Part shown: positions 5,754-24,303 of the stretch, in pieces
Layout of the letters: the number at the start of each line of letters is the position of its first letter
Numbering within the stretch: position 1 is the first letter of the stretch
Origin: a virus
Taxonomy: Duplodnaviria > Caudoviricetes
DNA: 28,261 bases
Strand: one strand, 5' to 3'
Virus record (IMG/VR): IMGVR_UViG_3300032225_000339
Coordinates: 1 to 28,261 of that record
The notes under the pieces: model-generated
The model's input: the letters and a program-made list of their open reading frames with translations, nothing else
The model's database searches: none
What the model was told of the DNA's origin: nothing
Translations under genes and position numbers: made by a program

Positions 5754-6101
5754 TTAATGTTTAGCTAGGTAGGGATCTACCAAGTCTACGTCTGCATCTA
5801 GCGTACCCGTAATATCGTGATCGTTAATCATGCGGTAGTCTTGTCCGTCTTTACCTTTGTAGAGCAAACCAGCGTACTTAGCAAAAATAACTTTATCACC
5901 AACTTCACACCACGCAGTAGCATCTTCAAGGTAACAACCGTCACCCATTGCAATTACTACACCAGTAGTGTTTCCCATCTGCTCACGAGCAGCAGTAGTT
6001 TCAGTTGTCAAAAGAATCCCGCCTTTAGAAACTGTGGCAATCTCACGGGGTTTAACAAGGATACGATTACCAACTGGGTTGATTCCAGATTCATTACTCA
6101 T
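5754..6101 (-). CDS. groES: GroES/Cpn10-like co-chaperonin
   Basis: PVGNRILVK, mobile loop KGGILL, GVVIAMG, VGDKVIFAKYAG, final DI motif. Confidence 0.92.
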   Translation of the reverse strand: MSNESGINPVGNRILVKPREIATVSKGGILLTTETTAAREQMGNTTGVVIAMGDGCYLEDATAWCEVGDKVIFAKYAGLLYKGKDGQDYRMINDHDITGTLDADVDLVDPYLAKH

Positions 6102-10736: not shown

Positions 10737-10748
10737 AATGCACCACTC

Positions 10749-10871
10749 TTATTTGTAGCTAGACTTCTTCTTAGCCATCTTTTCTTTCATCATTTCTTTT
10801 TTTTCTTTAGCCTTGTCAACCATCTTAGACATAGCTTCTTTTTTAGCTGGCATTGGTTTTTTCTTCATCAT
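10749..10871 (-). CDS. 40-aa Lys/Met-rich peptide
   Basis: Hand-translated MMKKKPMPAKKEAMSKMVDKAKEKKEMMKEKMAKKKSSYK; AAGGA RBS; first ORF after the late promoter. Confidence 0.65.
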   Translation of the reverse strand: MMKKKPMPAKKEAMSKMVDKAKEKKEMMKEKMAKKKSSYK

Positions 10872-10919
10872 GATTTTGTCCTTTAAGTAAAACAAGTTGA
10901 CGACAAGGTTGTCGGGGCG

Positions 10920-10949
10920 ACTATATCATCCTTTTACAAGTTGTGTAAG
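10920..10949 (-). promoter_or_regulatory. Putative late-operon promoter (extended -10)
   Basis: Minus strand TGaTATAGT (10920-10928) with TTACAC 17 nt upstream of the -10 hexamer. Confidence 0.55.
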
Positions 10950-10976
10950 TGTTGCTTAAATACAACACTACTGATG

Positions 10977-11007
10977 TTGACATGAGTTCTAGATCTGGGT
11001 GTACAAT
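10977..11007 (+). promoter_or_regulatory. Sigma70-like promoter with 19-nt spacer
   Basis: TTGACA (10977-10982), 19 nt, TACAAT (11002-11007). Confidence 0.5.
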
Positions 11008-11072
11008 CTTTATATTCTTTTTCTTTTTACCGTTTTTCTTTTTCTGGTCAGATATAGAGTGTTGTTAGTAGT

Positions 11073-11094
11073 AGGGCCGTAAGGCCCTTTTTTT
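11073..11094 (+). terminator. Rho-independent terminator
   Basis: AGGGCC-GTAA-GGCCCT followed by a T run. Confidence 0.8.
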
Positions 11095-11235
11095 ATGTCT
11101 GTCTCCTACACTCTGTTTGAGGTCATATGCGAGTCCTGTAAGGACGAGCATCAACCTAGATCTATCCCCCCCTTGTTTTAAAAAGTTGTGGCAGCGTTAT
11201 AAGTTGCTAGATGTAATAAATTAAAACAAAAACAT

Positions 11236-11450
11236 TTCCCCCCCTCTACCCCTACTACTACAGGAACATATAGGGTAAACCACTAGAACTACTACCTACT
11301 ACCTCCTGCTACTAGTAACACCTATATAGGGATATGTGTCAATACACAGGTGTATGTTTCACTATAAAAGTGTTGGTATATAGCAACACTATATACATCA
11401 ACAACTTAGCCCCCACTGATCATAGATGTATAGCCCACTGATCTATCCAT
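11236..11450. repeat. C-runs, CTA(C) short repeats, palindromes and a CCCACTGATC direct repeat; candidate genome-end region
   Basis: CTACTAC-type units 11245-11315; CCTATATAGG 11321-11330; AGTGTTG/CAACACT 11369-11390; CCCACTGATC at 11412 and 11434. Confidence 0.5.
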
Positions 11451-11628
11451 TGTTTGATGTGTCTGTAAGCCTCTAAATAGCCCATATCTGCTCTCGTTTG
11501 ATATAGGTTAATACCCGCACCTAGCTCTCGCTACATCGTGGCTCTAAGACGAGCTGGCTGACCTCCCTGATCTCCACCTGCTGACATGGTTTGAGAATAC
11601 CTGCTGGAGGGTCTCGTCGTCCCCAGTC

Positions 11629-11986
11629 ATCGGGGTTGTTGCGTTATCTCTCCCCCGTCACGTCGGGGCAGTCCGCGTGCGGCCTGCACTCCGTCGGGGG
11701 CTTGTTCAGCATTGTGTGCCCGATGCCTGTCGTCCTCCTCCTCGGGCTACGTGACAAGACTAGGGTATCGCAGTACTCCATTGTAAAGACTGATTGTTGT
11801 GTCGTCGCTAGCTACTGAGTAGCTGTCATCTGCTACTGCTTTAACCCTGTTGTCGCTCGACATAACCCGTCGGCGACCCACAAAATCACAGCCTACGGCT
11901 GCTCCGGTCTTGACAATGAAGCCTCCCAGCGATTCCCTTGCTATGTCACGCAGCGCACAGTGTGTTGCGGACGAAACAACCTCGAT
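11629..11986 (+). ncRNA. Large structured leader/ncRNA candidate 1
   Basis: 12-bp closing stem 11629-11640/11975-11986; ~45-nt imperfect inverted repeat 11747-11790/11907-11953; several internal hairpins. Confidence 0.6.
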
Positions 11987-11997
11987 AAGGAACTACC

Positions 11998-12324
11998 ATG
12001 AACAACCTTTGCTTCCATTCCATTCTCGCTTCCAACCAAGAAGTTGACTTCTTCACAGACATACTTCTCGACACCGGCATAGCTGGTGAGTTAGAGCACA
12101 GCTTGCTCGCAGAGCTAGAAGTCATTCCCGAACAAGCTATTTTTGATGAACAAGCAGAAGCTATAGTGGAACAATGGGACATCGAAATAGCTATTGAAGT
12201 GGAAGAAATAGAAAAGCTTGATCTTCCAAAAGATATGCTTACTTATGAATTTCACTACACTTGCGACATGAAAAACGAAATGTTACACATGGCTCAACAA
12301 GCAGCTCGTGGTATTGAATATTGA
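11998..12324 (+). CDS. Highly acidic first early protein (DNA-mimic candidate)
   Basis: 108 aa with 25 D/E and 4 K/R; AAGGA RBS. Confidence 0.8.
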   Translation: MNNLCFHSILASNQEVDFFTDILLDTGIAGELEHSLLAELEVIPEQAIFDEQAEAIVEQWDIEIAIEVEEIEKLDLPKDMLTYEFHYTCDMKNEMLHMAQQAARGIEY

Positions 12325-12499
12325 TCTACAAGGTGGTTGGTATGCAAATACCAACTACCTTTTTTTCTACTTCGCTGGTGTTACTAGGAACAGACGTTTC
12401 ACGACAGATTGGTATGCGGAGTACCACTCCTTTGTCGAACGTCTGATTGCTTACGGTCTGTGGTACTGCTTTATCTGGGCTAGGTCTATGACAGGTTGA
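12308..12499 (+). CDS. Aromatic-rich hypothetical protein
   Basis: 63-aa ORF overlapping the upstream stop; start uncertain. Confidence 0.4.
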   Translation: MVLNIDLQGGWYANTNYLFFYFAGVTRNRRFTTDWYAEYHSFVERLIAYGLWYCFIWARSMTG

Positions 12500-12596
12500 G
12501 GCATACGACCTCTATTGCGAGGACGTACCTCTCCGGTGACCTCTGTGGTGTGAGTAGCACTGTTCCAAGAATCCTAGACCTTCGGCCTGCGAGTCA

Positions 12597-12901
12597 TTGG
12601 TTGATGTTGATCTAGTTGTTTATGCTGAGTCATGTAGCTTTCCTATTCGTTACGGCGCTAGTTGTGTAGTTGCGTGGCGTGTGGGCGTTGGCGTCCTGTC
12701 GCGCCAGTCGCGGCGGCGCAAGCGCCTTGCTTTGTGTCACGCCCTGCCGCTGGGGGTGGCGGGTCTGCTCCGAGCGCCTCCACTTTTCTTGGTTGGCTCA
12801 GAGGAACGCGCCCCCCGCTGCGCTATGAGGGGGGCGGTTCCCCCTCGCTTAATCAACCAAGTAAGGAAAGCATCATGTCTCAAAACAACTTCGATTTCAA
12901 C
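12597..12901 (+). promoter_or_regulatory. Structured leader 2 with an antisense arm covering the RBS and start codon
   Basis: 12606-12644 is imperfectly complementary to 12864-12901; GC-rich hairpins in between. Confidence 0.55.
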
Positions 12902-13102
12902 GGTTTCAACGCAATGACGGAACGCAAGCCAGCAGGTCTTCAGATTTTCTTGGCTCAACAGTTGCTCTCAAACGCACTGTGGTCTATGGAGAAGTACGAT
13001 AACCCTCGTCAAGTCGAGGTTCGTGACGCTCTCAACGCTATCAAGACTCTTCGCTCTCAGATGAAAGCTGACGCAGCAGCCCGTGAAGCTGCTCAGCCTT
13101 AA
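12875..13102 (+). CDS. Early hypothetical protein (75 aa, helical)
   Basis: Start reassigned to MSQNNF with AAGGA RBS; followed by a terminator. Confidence 0.8.
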   Translation: MSQNNFDFNGFNAMTERKPAGLQIFLAQQLLSNALWSMEKYDNPRQVEVRDALNAIKTLRSQMKADAAAREAAQP

Positions 13103-13109
13103 TCTTCCC

Positions 13110-13143
13110 AAGGTAGTGGTTAACTCCACTACCTTTTCTTTGT
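13110..13143 (+). terminator. Rho-independent terminator
   Basis: AAGGTAGTGG-TTAACT-CCACTACCTT followed by a T-rich tract. Confidence 0.8.
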
Positions 13144-13161
13144 TCAACTTAGGAGATTATC

Positions 13162-13314
13162 ATGGATGATTTTGATATCACTAATGACGTATATCACAAA
13201 CGTAAACGTAGTATGTACGAATCTATCCTGGCATTAACTGGAGACATACTCGGAGCAAGCTTATTGATACTCGCTATTGGTATACCTTTTGCTATTTATT
13301 TCTGGAGAATGTAA
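13162..13314 (+). CDS. 50-aa single-pass membrane peptide
   Basis: Hand-translated MDDFDITNDVYHKRKRSMYESILALTGDILGASLLILAIGIPFAIYFWRM; AGGAG RBS. Confidence 0.75.
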   Translation: MDDFDITNDVYHKRKRSMYESILALTGDILGASLLILAIGIPFAIYFWRM

Positions 13315-13315
13315 T

Positions 13316-13600
13316 ATGTTCCACATAATATATCTTAACAATAACGCAGTATTGCGTCCTGCTAATCACGGTGTCAATAACAGCGAATGGGAACACGGAT
13401 GCAGGACTGTTCTTATTGCTGAAAAAACTTCCTATTCTGCTCAACGTTATGCAGAGTGTCTTGGCTTTGAACTACTTGACAAAGAAGAATGGAGCGAGTT
13501 CATAAGCTCACGAGATGATCCTACTGTTACTAGTAACGACCGTTACATCAACTCTCGTCCACGACCTGACAAATGGGACAACAGTCGGGAGATTTATTAG
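13316..13600 (+). CDS. Early hypothetical protein
   Basis: Start reassigned to MFHIIY (GGAG RBS, 1 nt after the upstream stop). Confidence 0.7.
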   Translation: MFHIIYLNNNAVLRPANHGVNNSEWEHGCRTVLIAEKTSYSAQRYAECLGFELLDKEEWSEFISSRDDPTVTSNDRYINSRPRPDKWDNSREIY

Positions 13601-13740
13601 TGTCTCACATAATCACTTTTATGAGACACATCGGAATGGTTGCTACGCTGTTCTGTGTAGTTGGCTACTTGTGGGCATCAACACCACCTGTAGCCATTAA
13701 AACTTGCAAACCAACTCTTATTGACAAGGTGTTCTTATGA
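13600..13740 (+). CDS. Small hydrophobic peptide
   Basis: GTG at 13600 (or ATG at 13621) ...MRHIGMVATLFCVVGYLWASTPP...; stop/start overlaps with both neighbours. Confidence 0.5.
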   Translation: MSHIITFMRHIGMVATLFCVVGYLWASTPPVAIKTCKPTLIDKVFL

Positions 13741-13952
13741 ACGAAAAGTACCTTCCTATTTGTACCTGCTGCTACGCAGTACGTGTTGAACCTCAACGAG
13801 CTAGGATAACTTGTCCTACTTGCATGGAGTGTGGGGAGATGTTGGCACAACGTGTCAAGCACACCATAGCACCAATGAATAAGAGCAACTACATGCTCTT
13901 CACAGATCCAGAGATGCTCAAGCAACTCAATCCCAAACGCACATCGTCCTAA
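13737..13952 (+). CDS. Small Cys-rich zinc-finger protein
   Basis: CTCC and CPTCMEC clusters, then IAPMNKSNY. Confidence 0.75.
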   Translation: MNEKYLPICTCCYAVRVEPQRARITCPTCMECGEMLAQRVKHTIAPMNKSNYMLFTDPEMLKQLNPKRTSS

Positions 13953-13960
13953 TGACGCTC

Positions 13961-14082
13961 AGCCCTAGCACCCCGAGATGCCAACCGCCAAGCGGTTTGG
14001 CATACGGGCTGCGGTGGGCTTCGCTTAAATAATGTTCCGGGCTTGCTCCCGGCCCTTACGGGGGGCCGTGAGGCTTCGCCCT
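13961..14082. other. GC-rich double-hairpin element (structured element 3)
   Basis: AGCCC/GGGCT, ATGCCA/TGGCAT, ACCGC/GCGGT nested stems; second hairpin CGGCCC/GGGCCG. Confidence 0.6.
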
Positions 14083-14118
14083 CTGTTGTTTTTTAACCAC
14101 ACATAGGAGATACCTATC

Positions 14119-14280
14119 ATGACCTTGTTTTACATAGAATCAAATGACTACGATGACGTACTTGTAGAGCTAAATCCAGAGGATACTAGAGACCTTTTCG
14201 ACGACGACAACAACAACGTCAAGCAACAAACTGGAGACACTGCTGAGTACTACAACTGGCTGCTCCATCATCCCAAGTAA
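14119..14280 (+). CDS. 53-aa acidic peptide
   Basis: Hand-translated MTLFYIESNDYDDVLVELNPEDTRDLFDDD...; 13 D/E versus 3 K/R; AGGAG RBS. Confidence 0.7.
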   Translation: MTLFYIESNDYDDVLVELNPEDTRDLFDDDNNNVKQQTGDTAEYYNWLLHHPK

Positions 14281-14289
14281 CACAACACT

Positions 14290-14315
14290 ATAGACCATTC
14301 ACACGAGTGGTCTAT
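14290..14315 (+). promoter_or_regulatory. RNase III-like processing stem
   Basis: ATAGACCATTC-ACAC-GAGTGGTCTAT, 11 bp with one T-G pair, intergenic, no U tract. Confidence 0.55.
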
Positions 14316-14349
14316 GTTGGCAATGTTGCCTACACTGTGGAGATAAATT

Positions 14350-14845: not shown

Positions 14846-15295
14846 ATGGATACACCAGTCTTATCGACTTTGTATGCTGCTGCTACTGAGTCATTGGTTT
14901 CAGACGCTAGTGCAACTAGTACGTTTGAGAAGATGATTGCGGAAGCATTTACGCATGGAACACTGGAGACTTTCACTAAAGATCTGCTTGACACTGAAAA
15001 ACAGATCAAAAAAGACTTTGAAGTCAAGTCTATGCCTAGCCCTTGGAGGTCTGCTAAATCAGTGCTTACAAGTGCTATGAAGCTTAACATCAAGCTTATA
15101 GATAGCAATGGGACCTACTTTGGTAAAACTGCACTGCAAAACAAAATCAAGGAATGCAAGGCTGATGTTAAAGAACCTATTACTTCTGAGGAGTATGCAA
15201 ACAAAATCATCAAACTTCTTATGGACATTCCAGGTGGTTTAGATAATGATGAAATTATCAAATCTGTTCGTGAATTTCTTAACACCGTTGACTAA
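14846..15295 (+). CDS. Hypothetical helical protein coupled to the VWA gene
   Basis: Start reassigned to MDTP (GGAG RBS); TAATG overlap with the next gene. Confidence 0.75.
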   Translation: MDTPVLSTLYAAATESLVSDASATSTFEKMIAEAFTHGTLETFTKDLLDTEKQIKKDFEVKSMPSPWRSAKSVLTSAMKLNIKLIDSNGTYFGKTALQNKIKECKADVKEPITSEEYANKIIKLLMDIPGGLDNDEIIKSVREFLNTVD

Positions 15296-17091
15296 TGCTT
15301 ACCCAAAGTATTGAAGTGATGAAATACATCCGAGCTAGTGCTGGCAGGGCTGGCATCTCGGTTGTATTTGAAGAAACAAACCAGCCTAGGCATGATGGCA
15401 AAACAATTTATCTGCCTAGGATCACTGGTAAAACAACTCTTGTTGAACTCAAACAGCTAATGGCATCTGTAGACCACGAGGTTGCACATGACCGTTTTAG
15501 CTGCTTTGACGTTCTTGCAGAGAAAAAACTTGATGGCAGTAGCATGTTAATGTTTGTTTGGAACTTCTTAGAAGACTCCAGAGTTAACATTATTGAAGCT
15601 AAAGAGTACAAAGGTTTTAAAGAAAATTGGGACGAATGCAGTTCTGCGTTAGTAAGCGACATTCTTAAACGAGCAAGCAAAGAAACATCTTCTGGTGCAA
15701 AGCTCACTTCTTCGTTGTTATGTTGGGAAAGCCACATATCTGCGGCCTATTTTCCAACAATTGAATTAGCTACTAGCAGATTCACACCTAACAAAAAGAT
15801 TACGGATGTTCTTAATAACTTTTCTGATTGTCTTGTTTCTTGTCATCAAATTCTCGACAAACGATTAGGCACTGAAGCAACTTACCAACTGGCTGTAGAC
15901 ATACTCAAAGAGCTAGGCAGTAAATGCAAAGAAGAGCTTAAAGAAACTACAAAACCTACTCCAACTTCAGGAGTTAAGAAAGAAAAAGAAACAACAGCAG
16001 AAAGCACAGACAAAACAAAACTTGGAGAAAAAGAATCCAAAGAGTCTAAAGATAGCACAAACGAAGAAGACGAATACAAAATCATCAAGGTAAAGCTTAC
16101 TAAAGAAGATTTAGAAAAGTTTTCTTTAACTATGCCGCAAGACGGAGCATCTATGGGTAAAGTTGGTATTAACTTTGATCCTGTAGCTTTGGGTTATCGT
16201 GAGTGGGATATGACTGACTACAAGGATTTTATTGTAGTTAATTACTCAAAAAAGATTGGTGAATCGCATTATTTTGAGACTAATGCCAAGACTCGTGCTT
16301 TTATAAAAGAGTATAGGTTGAGAGTTAGCGATAAATTAGTGTCTCAAGAAAACTTTGCTCAACAAGTTCGTAAGTTAATTCAAATCAAAGCTAAAGTACA
16401 AACTCAATATGGCACTAAACGTGGCAAGCTAGATCAATCTAGATTGTCTCGTATTTGCTTTGATGCTCCCGGTTTCAATGAGCGTGTATTTAAAACTCGG
16501 ATTGAAAACAAAACTTTAGATGCTGCCATCACAGTTTTAGTAGACATGTCTGGCTCTATGGGTGGAGATAAAGCATATTATGCTTTAGCTTCTACTCTAT
16601 TGCTTAATGAAGTGTGCTCAACTCTTAACATTCCATTAGAAATTATTGGTTTTACTGACGGATATAACTCCCACAGTAAAGTAGCCCCAATAATGTTTGT
16701 GTACAAATCTTTTTCTGATTTAAAAGTCAGTGAAGATGTTCTAGTTGAAAGCTTTTCATCAAGCAGCCGTTTTATGCAGGGCAATCCTGATGGGGAAAAC
16801 ATTCTTTGGACACATGATCGACTAGTTAAACGTAAGGAAAAAAAGAAAATCTTAGTTGTTATGTCTGATGGCAGTCCAGCAGCATCTAAAAGTTCTTTTG
16901 GACTAGAGGGGTTTACTCAAAAAGTAATTGAAGAAATACAGCAAAGTAAAAAAGTAGACATTTATGGTCTAGGTTTGTGCAGTGACTCTGTTAAGCACTA
17001 CTACAAAGCCAATGACGTTGTTTCTAAACCAGAAGAAATTCCGAGTAAGTTGTTATCTTTAATAGAAAGGAAGGTACTAAGCCATGTCTAG
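15295..17091 (+). CDS. CobT-like protein: HExxH domain, charged linker, C-terminal VWA domain
   Basis: DHEVAH and NFLEDSR; GKLD..RL; MIDAS DMSGS; SDG motif. Confidence 0.85.
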   Translation: MLTQSIEVMKYIRASAGRAGISVVFEETNQPRHDGKTIYLPRITGKTTLVELKQLMASVDHEVAHDRFSCFDVLAEKKLDGSSMLMFVWNFLEDSRVNIIEAKEYKGFKENWDECSSALVSDILKRASKETSSGAKLTSSLLCWESHISAAYFPTIELATSRFTPNKKITDVLNNFSDCLVSCHQILDKRLGTEATYQLAVDILKELGSKCKEELKETTKPTPTSGVKKEKETTAESTDKTKLGEKESKESKDSTNEEDEYKIIKVKLTKEDLEKFSLTMPQDGASMGKVGINFDPVALGYREWDMTDYKDFIVVNYSKKIGESHYFETNAKTRAFIKEYRLRVSDKLVSQENFAQQVRKLIQIKAKVQTQYGTKRGKLDQSRLSRICFDAPGFNERVFKTRIENKTLDAAITVLVDMSGSMGGDKAYYALASTLLLNEVCSTLNIPLEIIGFTDGYNSHSKVAPIMFVYKSFSDLKVSEDVLVESFSSSSRFMQGNPDGENILWTHDRLVKRKEKKKILVVMSDGSPAASKSSFGLEGFTQKVIEEIQQSKKVDIYGLGLCSDSVKHYYKANDVVSKPEEIPSKLLSLIERKVLSHV

Positions 17092-18205
17092 TACAGATAA
17101 AGTCGAGGATCTTGTTAAAAAGGCCCTCAAAGAAGCGTTAGACAAACGCAAAGTAGCTAAAGAAGATGTTCATCCATCAAGCTTTCTTACAGCATCGGTT
17201 GACGAAGTTGTTTCTAAAGCACCAACTCCTGTTTCTTTAGGCAGAATTTCACTAAAAGCTGACCAGGAATATTTTTCAGTTGTTACTAGAAACACATCAA
17301 TACCTGAGTCTGAAGATTTTCCAGTTTCTATCTTTGACAGCTACGATTGGGATGAGCGCATAGCGTCTTTTATTCCAAAGGTAGATCCCAACTACGTAAT
17401 TGACCCAGAGCTTGCAACAAACATTTTGCGTGCTTGGGAGATGGACGAGAAGGTGCTTTGTTTTGGCCCAACAGGTGCTGGCAAATCAAGTTTGATTGAG
17501 CAATTGTGTGCAATTACCAAACGTCCGTTTATCCGTGTTAACTGCACAGGTGACATGGACTCTTCTATGATCTTTGGTCAACTGACAGCTAAAGATGGTT
17601 CTACAGAATGGGTAGACGGTGCTGTAACAGAAGCTGTTAGGTATGGTGCTGTGTTTGCTTGGGACGAGTGGGATGTAACTCCTCCTGAGATTTCTATGGG
17701 TCTTCAATGGCTCTTAGAAGACGAGGGTAAACTGTTCTTAAAAGAAATGCCCGGTAGCACTAAAGACAAGCAAGTGATTCCACACCAGCATTTTAAGCTT
17801 GTGGCAATTGGCAACACGCAAGGTCAAGGTGATGAAACAGGCGCACATGCAGGCACTAACGTTCAGAACTCTGCTACACTGGATCGCTTTGGCACTGCTG
17901 TTTATGTTGGCTACCTCAAGCCAGAAGTAGAAGAAAAGATGATCCTAAACAAGTGGAGTTCCACTATCACACCCAAAGCTACTAAGGAGCTTGTCAAGCT
18001 TGCTAACTTGATTCGTCAAGGCTATCAAGCTGGTCAGTTTAACTTGACTATCTCTCCACGTTCGTTGTTCAGCATCTGTAAAAAGTTGTCATATGGTTCT
18101 ACCTTACGATCAGCTTACACGGTAGTGTATCTCAACAAACTCAACGAAACACAACGTAAAGTTGCTGATGAGTTGTTTGTTAAGATTTACGGCAACATAG
18201 TCTAG
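17084..18205 (+). CDS. MoxR/CobS-like AAA+ ATPase
   Basis: Walker A GPTGAGKS, RVNC, Walker B AWDEWD, ATLDRF arginine finger, SPR sensor 2. Confidence 0.9.
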   Translation: MSSTDKVEDLVKKALKEALDKRKVAKEDVHPSSFLTASVDEVVSKAPTPVSLGRISLKADQEYFSVVTRNTSIPESEDFPVSIFDSYDWDERIASFIPKVDPNYVIDPELATNILRAWEMDEKVLCFGPTGAGKSSLIEQLCAITKRPFIRVNCTGDMDSSMIFGQLTAKDGSTEWVDGAVTEAVRYGAVFAWDEWDVTPPEISMGLQWLLEDEGKLFLKEMPGSTKDKQVIPHQHFKLVAIGNTQGQGDETGAHAGTNVQNSATLDRFGTAVYVGYLKPEVEEKMILNKWSSTITPKATKELVKLANLIRQGYQAGQFNLTISPRSLFSICKKLSYGSTLRSAYTVVYLNKLNETQRKVADELFVKIYGNIV

Positions 18206-20709: not shown

Positions 20710-22647
20710 ATGACCACTCCGCTATTCGTAGCTATTGACGTTGAGACAACACTCAACGGCAATGAAGAAATAGGACTAGCTCATCCTATGAGCCCCGATA
20801 ACAAAGTAGTGCTATACGGCATTACCAACACTATCGGTGTTCCTTACACAACTGACAATCCAAAAGACTTTAAACGGGCTATAGCTAACTTTATAGGTGA
20901 TGCTCCCACTTATTGTGGACACAACATATCTTTTGATCTGTTGTATTTGTATCGAGAAAGTCCTGCTCTTAAAGAAACACTTCAATGGCACAAAATTTGG
21001 GATACACAATTAGCTGAATACATTCTTACAGGCCAACGTAGCAAGTGGTCTAGTCTGGATGAGTTGTCTATCAAGTACGGCCTACCCGTTAAAGATGACA
21101 AGATTAAAACTTACTTTGAAGCAGGTTTAGGGTCTGACAAGATACCTCGTGAAGAGCTTGAGCCATACCTTAAACAAGACTTAGAAAACACTTTTGTTGT
21201 AGCTGGTCAACAGTACTTAGAAGCTGAAAAGAACGGTCAGCTTACGTTGATACTGTCTCAGATGGAAGCATTACACGCAACTACTGAGATGATGTTTAAC
21301 GGCCTGCACATCGACAAAGAAAAACTAGACGCATACACTGTTGAAGTAGTTAACAACTACGTTGATGTACAACTTGCCTTGACTGATCTTTCAGCAGGAC
21401 GAGTTGAAGACATTAACAGTCCTAAACAATGGAGCCAATTCTTTTTTGGTGGAACCAAGAAAGTTAAAGTCAAAGAAGAAGTTGGTGTCTACAAAAATGG
21501 CAACACTAAATACAAGCTTGTAGAAACGTTAGTCAAAATTCCAGCGTTTATTAAGTACGTACCTGATCCTGAAAAAGTTTCTGCTAAGACAGGTCAGATA
21601 AGTGTTGATGATGCTGTACTTAACGACATGCTTAATCACACTGTTGATGTTGCTGCAATTAGCATAATCAAAAAATTGTTGCAATACAGAGAGTTATCTA
21701 AACAGCTTTCAACGTATGTGCAAGGCTTGAGCAAACACATTATTGGTGATTTTATTCATGGCAAACTTAATCACACAGCAACCGTAACAGGTCGTTTGTC
21801 TTCAACCAGTCCTAATTTACAAAATATTAGTAATAACCCTATCAAACAAATCTTTAATTCCCGGTATGATAGAGGTTTGATTGTTGAAGTTGACTTCAAT
21901 CAGCTAGAAGTTGTTGCCCTTGCCCATGTTACTAGAGACAAGCAATTGATCAAAGACATTGGGGATGGAGCAGACATTCACTCAGAGTTATACAAAGACA
22001 TGTTTGGTAAGTACCCTACTAAAGAAGAACGTAAGCCGTTTAAGGCTAGAACGTTTCAACTTATCTATGGTGCTGGAGCCAAAGCTATTAGCAAACAAGC
22101 TGGATGCAGTTTGGACGAAGCTAAGAAGTTTATAGATGTTTTTTATACTCGCTATCCTAAAGTAGCAGACTGGCACAAAGACTTTGCAGCAAAAGTAGAG
22201 CGCTATGCTGTATACGGTAAAACCGCAGATGGCCTAACTGAAAAAGTTAGGACATACACACTATTCACAGAAACTGGTCGTAAGTTCTCATTTACTGAGT
22301 ACTACAACGAAAGCACTTGGTCTACAAGAAGCTACAACTTTAGTCCCACAGAACTTAAGAACTACCCAGTGCAAGGATTGGCTACGGGCGATATTGTCCC
22401 AATGATGTTGGGCATTATTTTTCGTAAGCTAGTAGGCAGGGATGATGTGAAGATGGTTAACACCATTCACGACTCCCTAATGTTTGACGTTCAAGGCGAT
22501 TCTGCCGCTAACTTTATATTGGAGATTACCGACATACTTAAAGACACACACAAGTATTTTGAAGAGATATTTAAAAAGCCCCTAGCTCTGAAGCTCAACG
22601 CAGGAGCTAGTTATGGTCCTAATTGGTTCAACATGGAAGAAATGTAA
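20710..22647 (+). CDS. polA: Family A DNA polymerase with 3'-5' exonuclease domain
   Basis: Exo I DVET, Exo II HNISFD, Exo III YLKQD; TGRLSS..PNLQN; motif A DFNQLE; motif B KARTFQLIYG; motif C IHDS. Confidence 0.95.
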   Translation: MTTPLFVAIDVETTLNGNEEIGLAHPMSPDNKVVLYGITNTIGVPYTTDNPKDFKRAIANFIGDAPTYCGHNISFDLLYLYRESPALKETLQWHKIWDTQLAEYILTGQRSKWSSLDELSIKYGLPVKDDKIKTYFEAGLGSDKIPREELEPYLKQDLENTFVVAGQQYLEAEKNGQLTLILSQMEALHATTEMMFNGLHIDKEKLDAYTVEVVNNYVDVQLALTDLSAGRVEDINSPKQWSQFFFGGTKKVKVKEEVGVYKNGNTKYKLVETLVKIPAFIKYVPDPEKVSAKTGQISVDDAVLNDMLNHTVDVAAISIIKKLLQYRELSKQLSTYVQGLSKHIIGDFIHGKLNHTATVTGRLSSTSPNLQNISNNPIKQIFNSRYDRGLIVEVDFNQLEVVALAHVTRDKQLIKDIGDGADIHSELYKDMFGKYPTKEERKPFKARTFQLIYGAGAKAISKQAGCSLDEAKKFIDVFYTRYPKVADWHKDFAAKVERYAVYGKTADGLTEKVRTYTLFTETGRKFSFTEYYNESTWSTRSYNFSPTELKNYPVQGLATGDIVPMMLGIIFRKLVGRDDVKMVNTIHDSLMFDVQGDSAANFILEITDILKDTHKYFEEIFKKPLALKLNAGASYGPNWFNMEEM

Positions 22648-22648
22648 C

Positions 22649-23173
22649 ATGGTAATGATGACAGGCGTTGTGGAAGCCGTATCCACTAAAGATGTAACTA
22701 CTAAGTTTGGTACAAAACCAACGTATTCCTTCAAAGTTAATGGAAGTTGGATTAAATGTGGGTTTAAGAATCCTAATGTTGATGTTGGCTACACTGTAGA
22801 TTTTGATGGTGTAACAGGTACGTATGGCATTGAGACTAAATCAGTCAACATCACTAGTCGTATAGCAACACCAGCAGTAACAACACCAACAACACCGGCA
22901 GCAACTAAGAGTTACGGTAGCAGCAGCTACAAAGAAAAAGTGTTTCCTATTCCAGCATTGCATGGTGATCGGGCTATTGTTCGTCAGAACGCACTAGCTC
23001 GTGCAACTGATCTGTACATTGCTGCTCGTGGTGCTAAACCATTTGAATTGGAAGCATCTACTCTTGATATGATTATTAAGTTTGCTCGTAAGTTTGAGGC
23101 TTATACCGCTGGTGATCTGGACATGGCAGAGGTTATGGCAGAAGACACAGCAGAACAAACAGTTTCATTTTAA
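22649..23173 (+). CDS. Probable single-stranded DNA-binding protein
   Basis: OB-fold-like beta N-terminus, T/P/A linker, acidic tail ending in Phe; follows the polymerase; start 22649-22658. Confidence 0.55.
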   Translation: MVMMTGVVEAVSTKDVTTKFGTKPTYSFKVNGSWIKCGFKNPNVDVGYTVDFDGVTGTYGIETKSVNITSRIATPAVTTPTTPAATKSYGSSSYKEKVFPIPALHGDRAIVRQNALARATDLYIAARGAKPFELEASTLDMIIKFARKFEAYTAGDLDMAEVMAEDTAEQTVSF

Positions 23174-23185
23174 AAGGAATCAGTT

Positions 23186-23383
23186 ATGCAAGAGCAAGTT
23201 AAACGTGGTCGAGGTCGTCCCCGTAAAGTAGCAGTAAAAGTTGCTAATAACATTGAGCCCAAAAAAGAAGATGCTTTGTTGTTTGAGATTAATCTTAAGT
23301 TTTTGGACACCTATGGTTTTCAATTAACTGAAACTCAAGCAAAAGCTTTTCTGTTGCACATGGTTCGTGTAGTTGAGTTGTAA
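23186..23383 (+). CDS. AT-hook-containing small protein
   Basis: KRGRGRPRK motif; AAGGA RBS. Confidence 0.75.
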   Translation: MQEQVKRGRGRPRKVAVKVANNIEPKKEDALLFEINLKFLDTYGFQLTETQAKAFLLHMVRVVEL

Positions 23384-23390
23384 GTTTTAT

Positions 23391-23484
23391 GGAAGCTGTT
23401 AAGCCAGCGTTCGAGGATGTCAACGTAGGAAGTTTTCTGGCTTTCTGTCCTACCTAGTTGAAGACCAAATCGAAGCTTCCACCA
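23391..23484 (+). ncRNA. Pseudoknotted ncRNA candidate with an acceptor-like stem and 3' ACCA
   Basis: GGAAGCT/AGCTTCC then ACCA; pseudoknot AAGCCAG/CTGGCTT; inner stems TCGA/TCGA, TCAAC/GTTGA, GTAGGA/TCCTAC. Confidence 0.6.
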
Positions 23485-23487
23485 TAC

Positions 23488-23513
23488 AGGTCAGAGGAGA
23501 AATCCTCTGGCCT
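23488..23513 (+). promoter_or_regulatory. 11-bp GAAA-capped hairpin (processing-type stem)
   Basis: AGGTCAGAGGA-GAAA-TCCTCTGGCCT. Confidence 0.55.
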
Positions 23514-23553
23514 ATTCGACTGCGGTCTATGCCGCATAACTTAGAAAGTAAAC

Positions 23554-24303
23554 ATGAAAGCACTAATCGACGGTGACATTGTGGTGTACAGAGCCGCAGC
23601 GTCAGCAGAAGAAGAAGAGCAGTGGGTAGCGTTAGCAAGAGCAGACAAGCTTATGCAAGACATTTTAGAGGAGACTACAGCAGACAGCTACAACGTGTAC
23701 CTCACAGGTAGCGGTAACTTTCGTAGAGAAATAGCTCCCAGCTACAAAGCTCAACGACCTGATGCTAGACCTAAACATTGGCAAGCAGTGCGAGAGTTCC
23801 TAGTAACACAGCACAAAGCTATTGTATGTGACGGATTTGAAGCTGACGATCAACTGGGTATAGACCAAGACAAGACTTATAAGTCAACAGTTATTTGTTC
23901 TATAGACAAAGATTTACTTCAGATCCCTGGCAGGCACTACAATTTTGTTAAGAAAGTGTTCCAGGAAGTAACACACGATGAAGGTATTAAGTTTTTGTAT
24001 ATACAAAGTCTTGTTGGAGATCGCAGTGACAACATCTTTGGTGTTCAGGGCATAGGCCCAGTCAAAGCAGCTAAAGCTTTAGACGGACTGCTTCCAGAAG
24101 AGTACTACGACAAATGTCGTGCTATGTACGATGACGATGCTAGGTTTCATCTCAACATGCAACTGCTATACATCTGGCAAAAGCCTAACGACATGTGGCA
24201 ACCGCCCAACAGCCGCGAAGCGGAACCCACAGCAGCCAAAGCTTCCCCTTACGGGGAAGGTTTGGAAACACAACTAACAGAACAAGGCGGCAACAATGCC
24301 TAG
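23554..24303 (+). CDS. 5'-3' exonuclease (T7 gp6/FEN-like)
   Basis: LIDGD, YKAQR, EADD, DKDLLQIPG, GDRSDNIFGVQGIGP helix-hairpin motif. Confidence 0.92.
   Translation: MKALIDGDIVVYRAAASAEEEEQWVALARADKLMQDILEETTADSYNVYLTGSGNFRREIAPSYKAQRPDARPKHWQAVREFLVTQHKAIVCDGFEADDQLGIDQDKTYKSTVICSIDKDLLQIPGRHYNFVKKVFQEVTHDEGIKFLYIQSLVGDRSDNIFGVQGIGPVKAAKALDGLLPEEYYDKCRAMYDDDARFHLNMQLLYIWQKPNDMWQPPNSREAEPTAAKASPYGEGLETQLTEQGGNNA

Follow-up and report, generated by a model that had tools for sequence, protein, structure and literature searches.

The window analyzed here is the whole 28,261-nt stretch of the Caudoviricetes record IMGVR_UViG_3300032225_000339 (IMG/VR), a 28-kb virus record that is 62% complete, in which the minus strand encodes the head genes and the plus strand bears a replication block. 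The subject of this study is a 90-nt structured RNA motif, present once in the window, that occupies the slot between a small ORF, itself located after a putative gene for a single-strand DNA-binding protein (SSB), and a 5'-3' exonuclease gene (Table 1). The sole match of the putative SSB was the unknown family phrog_18140, and a Pfam scan of it gave no match. Rfam at gathering thresholds and ARAGORN returned zero matches in the window, and four sub-threshold Rfam matches near the motif site were weak and unrelated. An earlier note on this DNA had proposed a compact pseudoknotted RNA at this place, and all of its segments are present (GGAAGCT with AGCTTCC, the ACCA tail, and AAGCCAG with CTGGCTT).

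Table 1. Positions in the window of the motif, its parts and the neighboring features
Feature	Position	Strand	Evidence or remark
Whole RNA motif, 90 nt, compact phage branch of the At1/Ti2 fold	23391..23480	+	covariation
P1 closing stem, 5' strand (partner 23474-23480)	23391..23397	+	double changes at 7/7 pairs
Basal mini-loop: lone pair G23398-C23408 around UU and pseudoknot strand AAGCCAG (23401-07)	23398..23408	+	
P2, 5' strand (partner 23470-23473), contiguous with P1 on the 3' side	23411..23414	+	double changes at 3/4 pairs
Conserved strand GGAUG in the internal loop of the core, facing CCAAA (23465-23469)	23415..23419	+	pairing register ambiguous
P3 (TC/GA 23463-64; AAC/GTT 23457-59) and P4 5' strand 23425-32 (partner 23446-53)	23420..23432	+	covariation
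13-nt apical loop UUUU-CUGGCUU-UC (23437-43 is the partner of 23401-07)	23433..23445	+	pseudoknot covariation
3' overhang ACC(A)	23481..23484	+	NCC enriched across the family, final A not
Separate hairpin of terminator-family type, no U-tract here, outside the motif	23488..23513	+	fold and relatives
Putative SSB gene	22613..23173	+	inferred from acidic tail and position after the DNA polymerase gene
Small optional ORF	23186..23383	+	weak AT-hook match; stops 7 nt 5' of the motif
5'-3' exonuclease gene, downstream of the motif	23554..24303	+	phrog_107, E 2e-60; PF02739

The fold of the motif is real and strongly supported as a structure. Its minimum free energy is unremarkable (-25.7 kcal/mol, z -1.38; 21 of 200 shuffles equally good), and among 20,000 shuffles, 9 gave perfect 7-bp complementarity of the two 13-nt loops. 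In 65 equal-length copies, 96.1% of the cells are paired with all seven helices kept, and their covariation score was reached by none of 500 shuffles. Among 55 representatives less than 80% alike, double changes occur at 6 of the 7 pseudoknot pairs and 98.4% of the pseudoknot cells pair. Of 561 loci, 473 were parsed by the descriptor, and the 310 distinct copies among them show 47 pseudoknot sequence types; the removal of one mis-parsed copy (L647) left 309. In these, the 2,163 pseudoknot cells hold 407 double changes, 19 one-sided changes and 6 broken pairs, counted over sequences and not over independent events, and the pseudoknot thus passed the homologue covariation check proposed for it. 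The pseudoknot seemed invariant while the search pattern fixed it, and scans leaving it free gave strong covariation. Since the parser required 6 of 7 pseudoknot pairs, the 22 of 240 scan matches that failed it were inspected by eye, being 20 with an intact pseudoknot and 2 chance matches. The plus strand is the folding strand, because G-U wobbles (212) far exceed A-C mismatches (5) in the 309 copies.

Several details of the proposed hairpins had to be redrawn. The pairing of the 7-bp closing stem was borne out at every position, while its fixed length was not: P1 has mostly 5 to 9 bp (5, 6, 7, 8 and 9 bp in 51, 49, 80, 43 and 53 of the 309 copies), and P1-like stems are also present in bare terminators of relatives. 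The lone pair 23398-23408 is G-C in 306 and A-U in 4 of the 310 copies; it closes the basal loop, and therefore the pseudoknot is a loop-loop kiss at a three-way junction. A 3-bp local basal hairpin drawn by Rfam and RNAalifold shows no covariation beyond shuffles in the phage alignment (462 of 500 reach it). The helices of the long hairpin hold, except for the two outer pairs of TCAAC/GTTGA and the 3x3 loop, those pairs being broken in 21 and 14 of the 65 equal-length copies. The true outer pairs of P3 (TC 23420-21 with GA 23463-64) are broken in none of the 65 and show 21 and 17 double changes. On the 3' side of P4, the bulge has 3 nt in the window and is enlarged in 17 of the 309 phage copies, which are at least 100 nt long and form a hairpin there in those inspected. 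The GGAUG strand is invariant in 49 of 49 copies fetched through the exonuclease protein without any DNA pattern (later scans imposed it by pattern), with greater variability in rhizobial plasmid copies.

A CsrA site and kink-turn, T-loop, pistol, twister and HDV-like folds, compared by consensus, were rejected by covariation or missing elements. An antisense guide was rejected as well: the loop should be structural, because the pseudoknot sequence exchanges freely, with compensation, while pairing internally. The rejection includes the resemblance of this loop to a cobalamin-riboswitch segment in reverse complement.

By profile, core motifs and context, the motif family is a compact, distant branch of Atu_At1 (RF02496), the family of the Agrobacterium small RNA At1; the window copy itself is a homologue on these grounds and a non-member by the Rfam cut-off. 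The novelty assumed for it therefore has to be reduced: it has no Rfam match at gathering thresholds, and it is a distant relative of a catalogued family. Two of 20 divergent phage loci gave sub-threshold RF02496 matches (29.9 and 26.9 bits), the best compact members reaching 27-30 bits. In the other direction, a phage-only model built from diverse copies (R2) matches 10 of 13 rhizobial plasmid loci at the corresponding place, 5 of them at E<1e-4, these E-values being rough and the loci pre-selected by At1 likeness. The R2 score was 39.5 bits for At1 (E 1.4e-7 in 68 kb) and 28.9 bits for Ti2, and the R1 model, made from close copies only, left At1 unmatched. The pseudoknot, which R2 does not score, has 6 to 7 of its 7 pairs in the 14 At1-type copies parsed (16 given).

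At1 and Ti2, handled separately in PMC3384568, are paralogues in one family. The first lies on pAtC58, 5' of ligD and with a divergent gene upstream (115 bits to RF02496), and the second on pTiC58, 5' of the atu6155-virK operon (L684:2499-2609, 80.5 bits). Blastn gave relatives in 208 plasmid records, the Ti2 position on pTiC58 among them, and the plasmid neighbors are mixed (ligD, RtcR, HlyD, CsbD, VapC and others, with three records unannotated there). A further viral scan found the pseudoknot in 82 of 120 matches, and four viral contigs scored as true members of RF02496 (78-89 bits against a cut-off of 60), one of them (L765) placed between an SSB gene and a Cas4-type exonuclease gene. Both Atu_At1 and the phage motif are thus found on phage contigs, as they are on plasmids, and both show the closing stem, GUYA with the pseudoknot strand and C, P2, GGAUG, P3/P4 and the UUUU-pseudoknot-UUC loop in the same order. 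On the other hand, the phage motif has about 90 nt against 108-113 in Atu_At1, mostly lacks the extra hairpin that At1-type RNAs carry 3' of P4, and has A-U where At1 has G-C at the top of P2, the pair adjoining the core (30 AU, 9 GC). The Rfam At1 model has no pseudoknot and draws instead the local basal hairpin that the phage alignment does not support.

The published data concern the Agrobacterium RNAs. At1 was measured as 113 nt by sequencing and 115 by Northern and is strongest at high density (Wilms et al. 2012, PMC3384568), and it was validated by RACE in PMC3738593. According to PMC3384568, Ti2 is a 113-nt, VirA/VirG-dependent RNA and the Ti-plasmid transcript of highest abundance under induction, for which the authors left both premature termination and processing possible. 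The 3' end tabulated there falls at P1 plus ACCC, within the precision of 454 read ends. One table in PMC10690425 reports two viral clusters matching RF02496, so that At1-like RNA in viruses is on record, and the compact branch may be among the candidates of that work. A full-text search for 'Atu_At1' gave no paper, and term look-ups in the literature, including PMC11109978, PMC5737381 and a 2026 preprint, found no pseudoknot or function described in the passages that carry the terms. QfsR was set aside as a different RNA with other coordinates (10.1101/533729). As a side observation, L683 (pAtC58), L685 and L686 have a GGAAC-N15/16-(C/G)CTT-like promoter immediately 5' of their At1-type copies. 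It resembles the consensus of the general-stress sigma factor. Several neighbors of At1-type copies are stress genes (ligD, CsbD, HWE kinase).

The motif is carried by hundreds of unrelated phages. It was present in 49 of the 80 loci fetched through the exonuclease protein, and four pattern scans put the number of stored stretches at about 490, 640 and 740 for IMG/VR and at about 1,100 for metagenomes; these estimates count stretches, overlap one another and include some chance matches. All copies found are in viral contigs, unassigned metagenome contigs or plasmids. In genome contigs, a scan with a very loose pattern (about 3,500 matches estimated) gave no true copy among 120 fetched, and no prophage hosts were found. 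R2 had no match in 150 genomes of the family of genome G002 (26 candidates scored per genome, one genome unscored), and a strict pattern none in 401 genomes of its class. In the class of genome G001, 20 of 401 genomes had matches to a loose pattern, at 22 sites that R2 did not support (best E 0.12 and 0.48). The RF02496 search of host genomes (0 of 5 and 0 of 151) was made without a positive control scoring. The host-chromosome negatives mean that copies were not found in the genomes searched, by weak searches. Blastn with five queries returned only short matches in cultured phages, as did plasmids with the window copy, and a Curvibacter phage match was discarded as a copy since the loop is absent; in the cultured-phage comparison the nearest polymerases are about 35% identical. 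Two contigs of the RNA run X1 bear motif copies, one ending at 23482, contigs being unable to show ends or level.

The genes around the motif are diverse. Clustering gave 69 clusters for the 202 proteins upstream and likewise 69 for the 181 downstream, and the 81 representatives scanned (clusters of at least 2 or long singletons) include SSBs, exonucleases, capsid proteins, terminases, endolysin, polymerases, methyltransferases and Dps-like proteins, the motif often lying 3' of SSB, capsid or endolysin genes. It lies at most 40 nt from a stop codon in 126 of the 228 loci with long flanks. After 29 loci too short to classify were left aside, 199 were classified by ORF length: 120 have same-strand genes on both sides, the gene downstream is convergent in 34, and the gene upstream is divergent in 17. 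These classes were verified by HMM on 51 ORFs, several loci giving no match either way; reversal was confirmed between SSB and Cas4-type exonuclease genes (L364) and before endolysin genes (L130, L139), and convergence in five loci facing endolysin and six facing other genes. A same-strand tRNA lies 3-59 nt from the motif in 5 of the 228 loci. In two other loci (L608, L419), the motif is antisense within a tRNA array, between tRNA-Arg and tRNA-Gln, with TATAAT just upstream.

The motif is an optional cassette, accessory to its loci. In 31 close relatives without it, read by eye (8 of these slot segments being identical to another), the slot holds a plain terminator hairpin in 28, a different structured RNA in 1 and neither in 2, and filled and empty slots with a shared stem were found (L045 versus L020; L122 versus L061). 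The earlier note had seen a processing-type stem after the CCA, and a hairpin is indeed present there in the window. It is a separate one of the terminator-hairpin family, and hairpins like it, with a U-tract, occupy the slot alone in L012, L038, L042, L044 and L046. The stretch 23488-23536 of the window forms two hairpins joined by a short linker (z -5.68), an arrangement that recurs with different stems in L003, L004, L036 and L057 and may be a decayed terminator plus another element.

Two further RNAs were observed beside the motif or in its place. The different structured RNA in the same terminator slot (L077:2255-2335; z -2.25, no Rfam match) has a G-rich closing stem and an internal loop with GAAA opposite GAGUA, followed by ACC and then a U-tract, and similar starts are found near L190 and L445. 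In L097, L121, L123, L143, L596 and L599, an element CGCAUG.GGAUUG ... CAGUCY.CAGCCGUG abuts the 5' side of the motif; copies of it occur in terminase regions, sometimes doubled and with no Rfam match, and it is possibly another uncatalogued phage RNA. Elsewhere in the window, the 3.6 kb between the divergent head and replication blocks (10737-14349) hold short ORFs only, with no PHROG, Rfam or tRNA match, and are likely a control and host-takeover region. A GroES co-chaperonin gene lies amid the head genes (5754-6101), and a CobT-like/CobS-like gene pair precedes the primase (15295-18205).

We suggest, with a probability of about one half, that the motif is a conserved kissing-loop RNA, homologous to At1 and Ti2, which would work in trans as a stand-alone RNA, its core binding a host molecule that is most likely a protein. 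It is taken as a stand-alone RNA because a cis regulator should keep its orientation and a thematic target, and the motif keeps neither. Furthermore, the conserved tertiary core needs another reason than a boundary, since a plain terminator already serves as the boundary in relatives. The 5' end would come from a promoter of the RNA itself or from a cut, possibly made by RNase P, at the base of P1, and the 3' end from termination at P1 plus a U-tract in about half of the copies or from trimming to P1 plus an NCC-type tail. The RNA would ride on strong transcription that stops at the RNA's own stem. Its stability would come from the pseudoknot and the paired ends, and the conserved unpaired bases GUYA, GGAUG, UUUU..UUC and CCAAA would be the binding surface. 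That the target may be a host stress or defence factor, with the RNA as a decoy, is a guess, made because all copies found are in the viral, unassigned or plasmid sequences described above.

Several points weigh against this proposal. RNAs of about 113 nt were shown by others for At1 and Ti2 only, the phage copies being known here from sequence alone, and the window copy gave no RF02496 match at E<=10 or E<=3 (gathering cut-off 60 bits). The Northern in PMC3738593 sized At1 at about 140 nt, and the same work takes Ti2 as possibly part of a 207-nt 5' UTR; according to PMC3384568, in which the data are not shown, deletion of Ti2 left tumour formation unchanged. The 120 loci with same-strand genes on both sides are what a cis element would also show, and NCC is found in only 27% of the copies. 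A -10 element is seen in 8 of 19 reversed or divergent copies versus 12 of 108 (p=0.002), among copies that are related and flanks that are AT-rich. Finally, the restriction to mobile elements rests on weak host-genome searches.

In a more specific proposal, which we consider possible but tentative, these RNAs would be phage and plasmid decoys, with the kissing loop as an aptamer that would sequester a signal of host defence or stress, be it a nucleotide second messenger or a sensor protein. The RNA would be released in bulk from strongly expressed operons, Ti2 being the same device. Pseudo-ToxI (PMC3475682) offers a precedent for phage RNA mimicry against host defence; the motif differs from it in having no repeat array, no linked toxin and no ToxI-family match in the Rfam scans.

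A cis-acting conditional terminator or leader, in which the core within an intrinsic-terminator loop would tune read-through, possibly via a nucleotide messenger or an ion, seems doubtful to us. It would agree with the U-tract that follows P1 in 151 of the 309 copies, with the interchange of P1 and a plain terminator, with the intercistronic position in the 120 same-strand loci, and with the places of At1 and Ti2 5' of ligD and of the atu6155-virK operon. The topology also recalls that of the c-di-GMP-II riboswitch, where, as in the motif, the apical loop of a bent arm has its pairing partner in a basal 5' loop strand. However, the motif has no c-di-GMP-II Rfam score and no 3' junction strand between P2 and P1, and its bulge-adjacent pairs are covarying Watson-Crick pairs and not kink-turn G-A. 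In c-di-GMP-II (RF01786) the ligand is bound at a triple helix (PMC7583470). Terminator-embedded aptamers do exist, as the HMP-PP (thiS) aptamer, where a structured element is tied to an intrinsic terminator stem (PMC6478431), but the motif has a much larger core and no consistent downstream pathway. The 69 clusters of 181 downstream proteins share no theme, the 34 loci with a convergent downstream gene leave no same-strand gene to control, and half of the copies have no U-tract. No conserved alternative fold was seen, without a systematic search, and no riboswitch family scored on the motif in the Rfam scans.

A role as constitutive boundary element of mRNA, by which the motif would stabilize the adjoining message as a processing mark or nuclease barrier, is improbable. 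The usual closeness to a stop codon, the NCC tails and U-tracts, and the frequent position after SSB, capsid or endolysin genes would suit it; but the plain hairpin in 28 of the 31 relatives leaves the tertiary core unexplained, the gene upstream of At1 is divergent, and reversed copies guard no sense message.

The ACCA after the closing stem had suggested a tRNA mimic, which we consider unlikely because the CCA is unconserved (NCCA directly after P1 in 8 of the 309 copies) and the closing stem varies in length; ARAGORN found no tRNA gene at the motif. What remains of that signal is an enrichment of NCC directly after P1, found in 84 of the 309 copies against 1-31 times for CC at seven other offsets, with the last A of ACCA not conserved. 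The ends of the motif resemble those of E. coli 4.5S RNA. The window copy has a terminal stem with an RCC overhang, and we infer that the NCC tail suits an optional processing signal (RNase P or trimming) better than tRNA mimicry. A terminal stem with an RCC(A) tail is also seen in RNase P substrates such as pre-4.5S RNA (PMC11143913), the terminal stem of the motif being G-rich with the NCC overhang in those 84 copies, and discriminator-C-C are, according to this review, the residues that pair with RNase P RNA. Unlike pre-4.5S RNA, the motif has an optional tail and no SRP-type core, and its cleavage is only predicted. A tRNA-like decoy, completed by CCA and engaging tRNA-handling or tRNA-cutting enzymes, could draw on P1 and P2 being contiguous on the 3' side, as acceptor and T stems are, besides the NCC enrichment and the five loci abutting tRNA genes, and it is very unlikely in view of the counts above and of a UUCGA look-alike that is part of the covarying P2 helix and no T-loop.

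Just as unlikely is a self-cleaving ribozyme of an unrecognised type, for which the compact pseudoknot, the large number of conserved bases left unpaired and a context that does not depend on gene function might speak: if a ribozyme is efficient, its full-length RNA should not build up, yet At1 and Ti2 do accumulate in that form, each giving one full-length Northern size on denaturing gels (PMC3384568 Table 2), and no ribozyme family scored in the Rfam scans. Least probable of all is a small mobile or single-stranded-DNA element that is no functional RNA, since both orientations at similar gene junctions, the patchy presence and the G-T wobbles, alone compatible with single-stranded DNA, are countered by the single copy in the window with never two in one locus, by flanking families that were scanned without finding a transposase (an IS5 lies near one plasmid copy) and by relatives that are abundant RNAs.

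At1 and Ti2 are small RNAs of Agrobacterium that have lacked an explanation since 2012, and their database structure omits the pseudoknot. The 309 phage sequences provide a corrected fold backed by covariation and a far wider range for the At1-type RNA. The minimal 90-nt version suits probing and structure work, with a short list of conserved bases for mutation, and the function can be tested directly, since native copies are present in a cultured host. A virulence-induced plasmid RNA is also tied to an RNA of many unrelated lytic-type phages, which points to a job common to mobile elements and not specific to plants.
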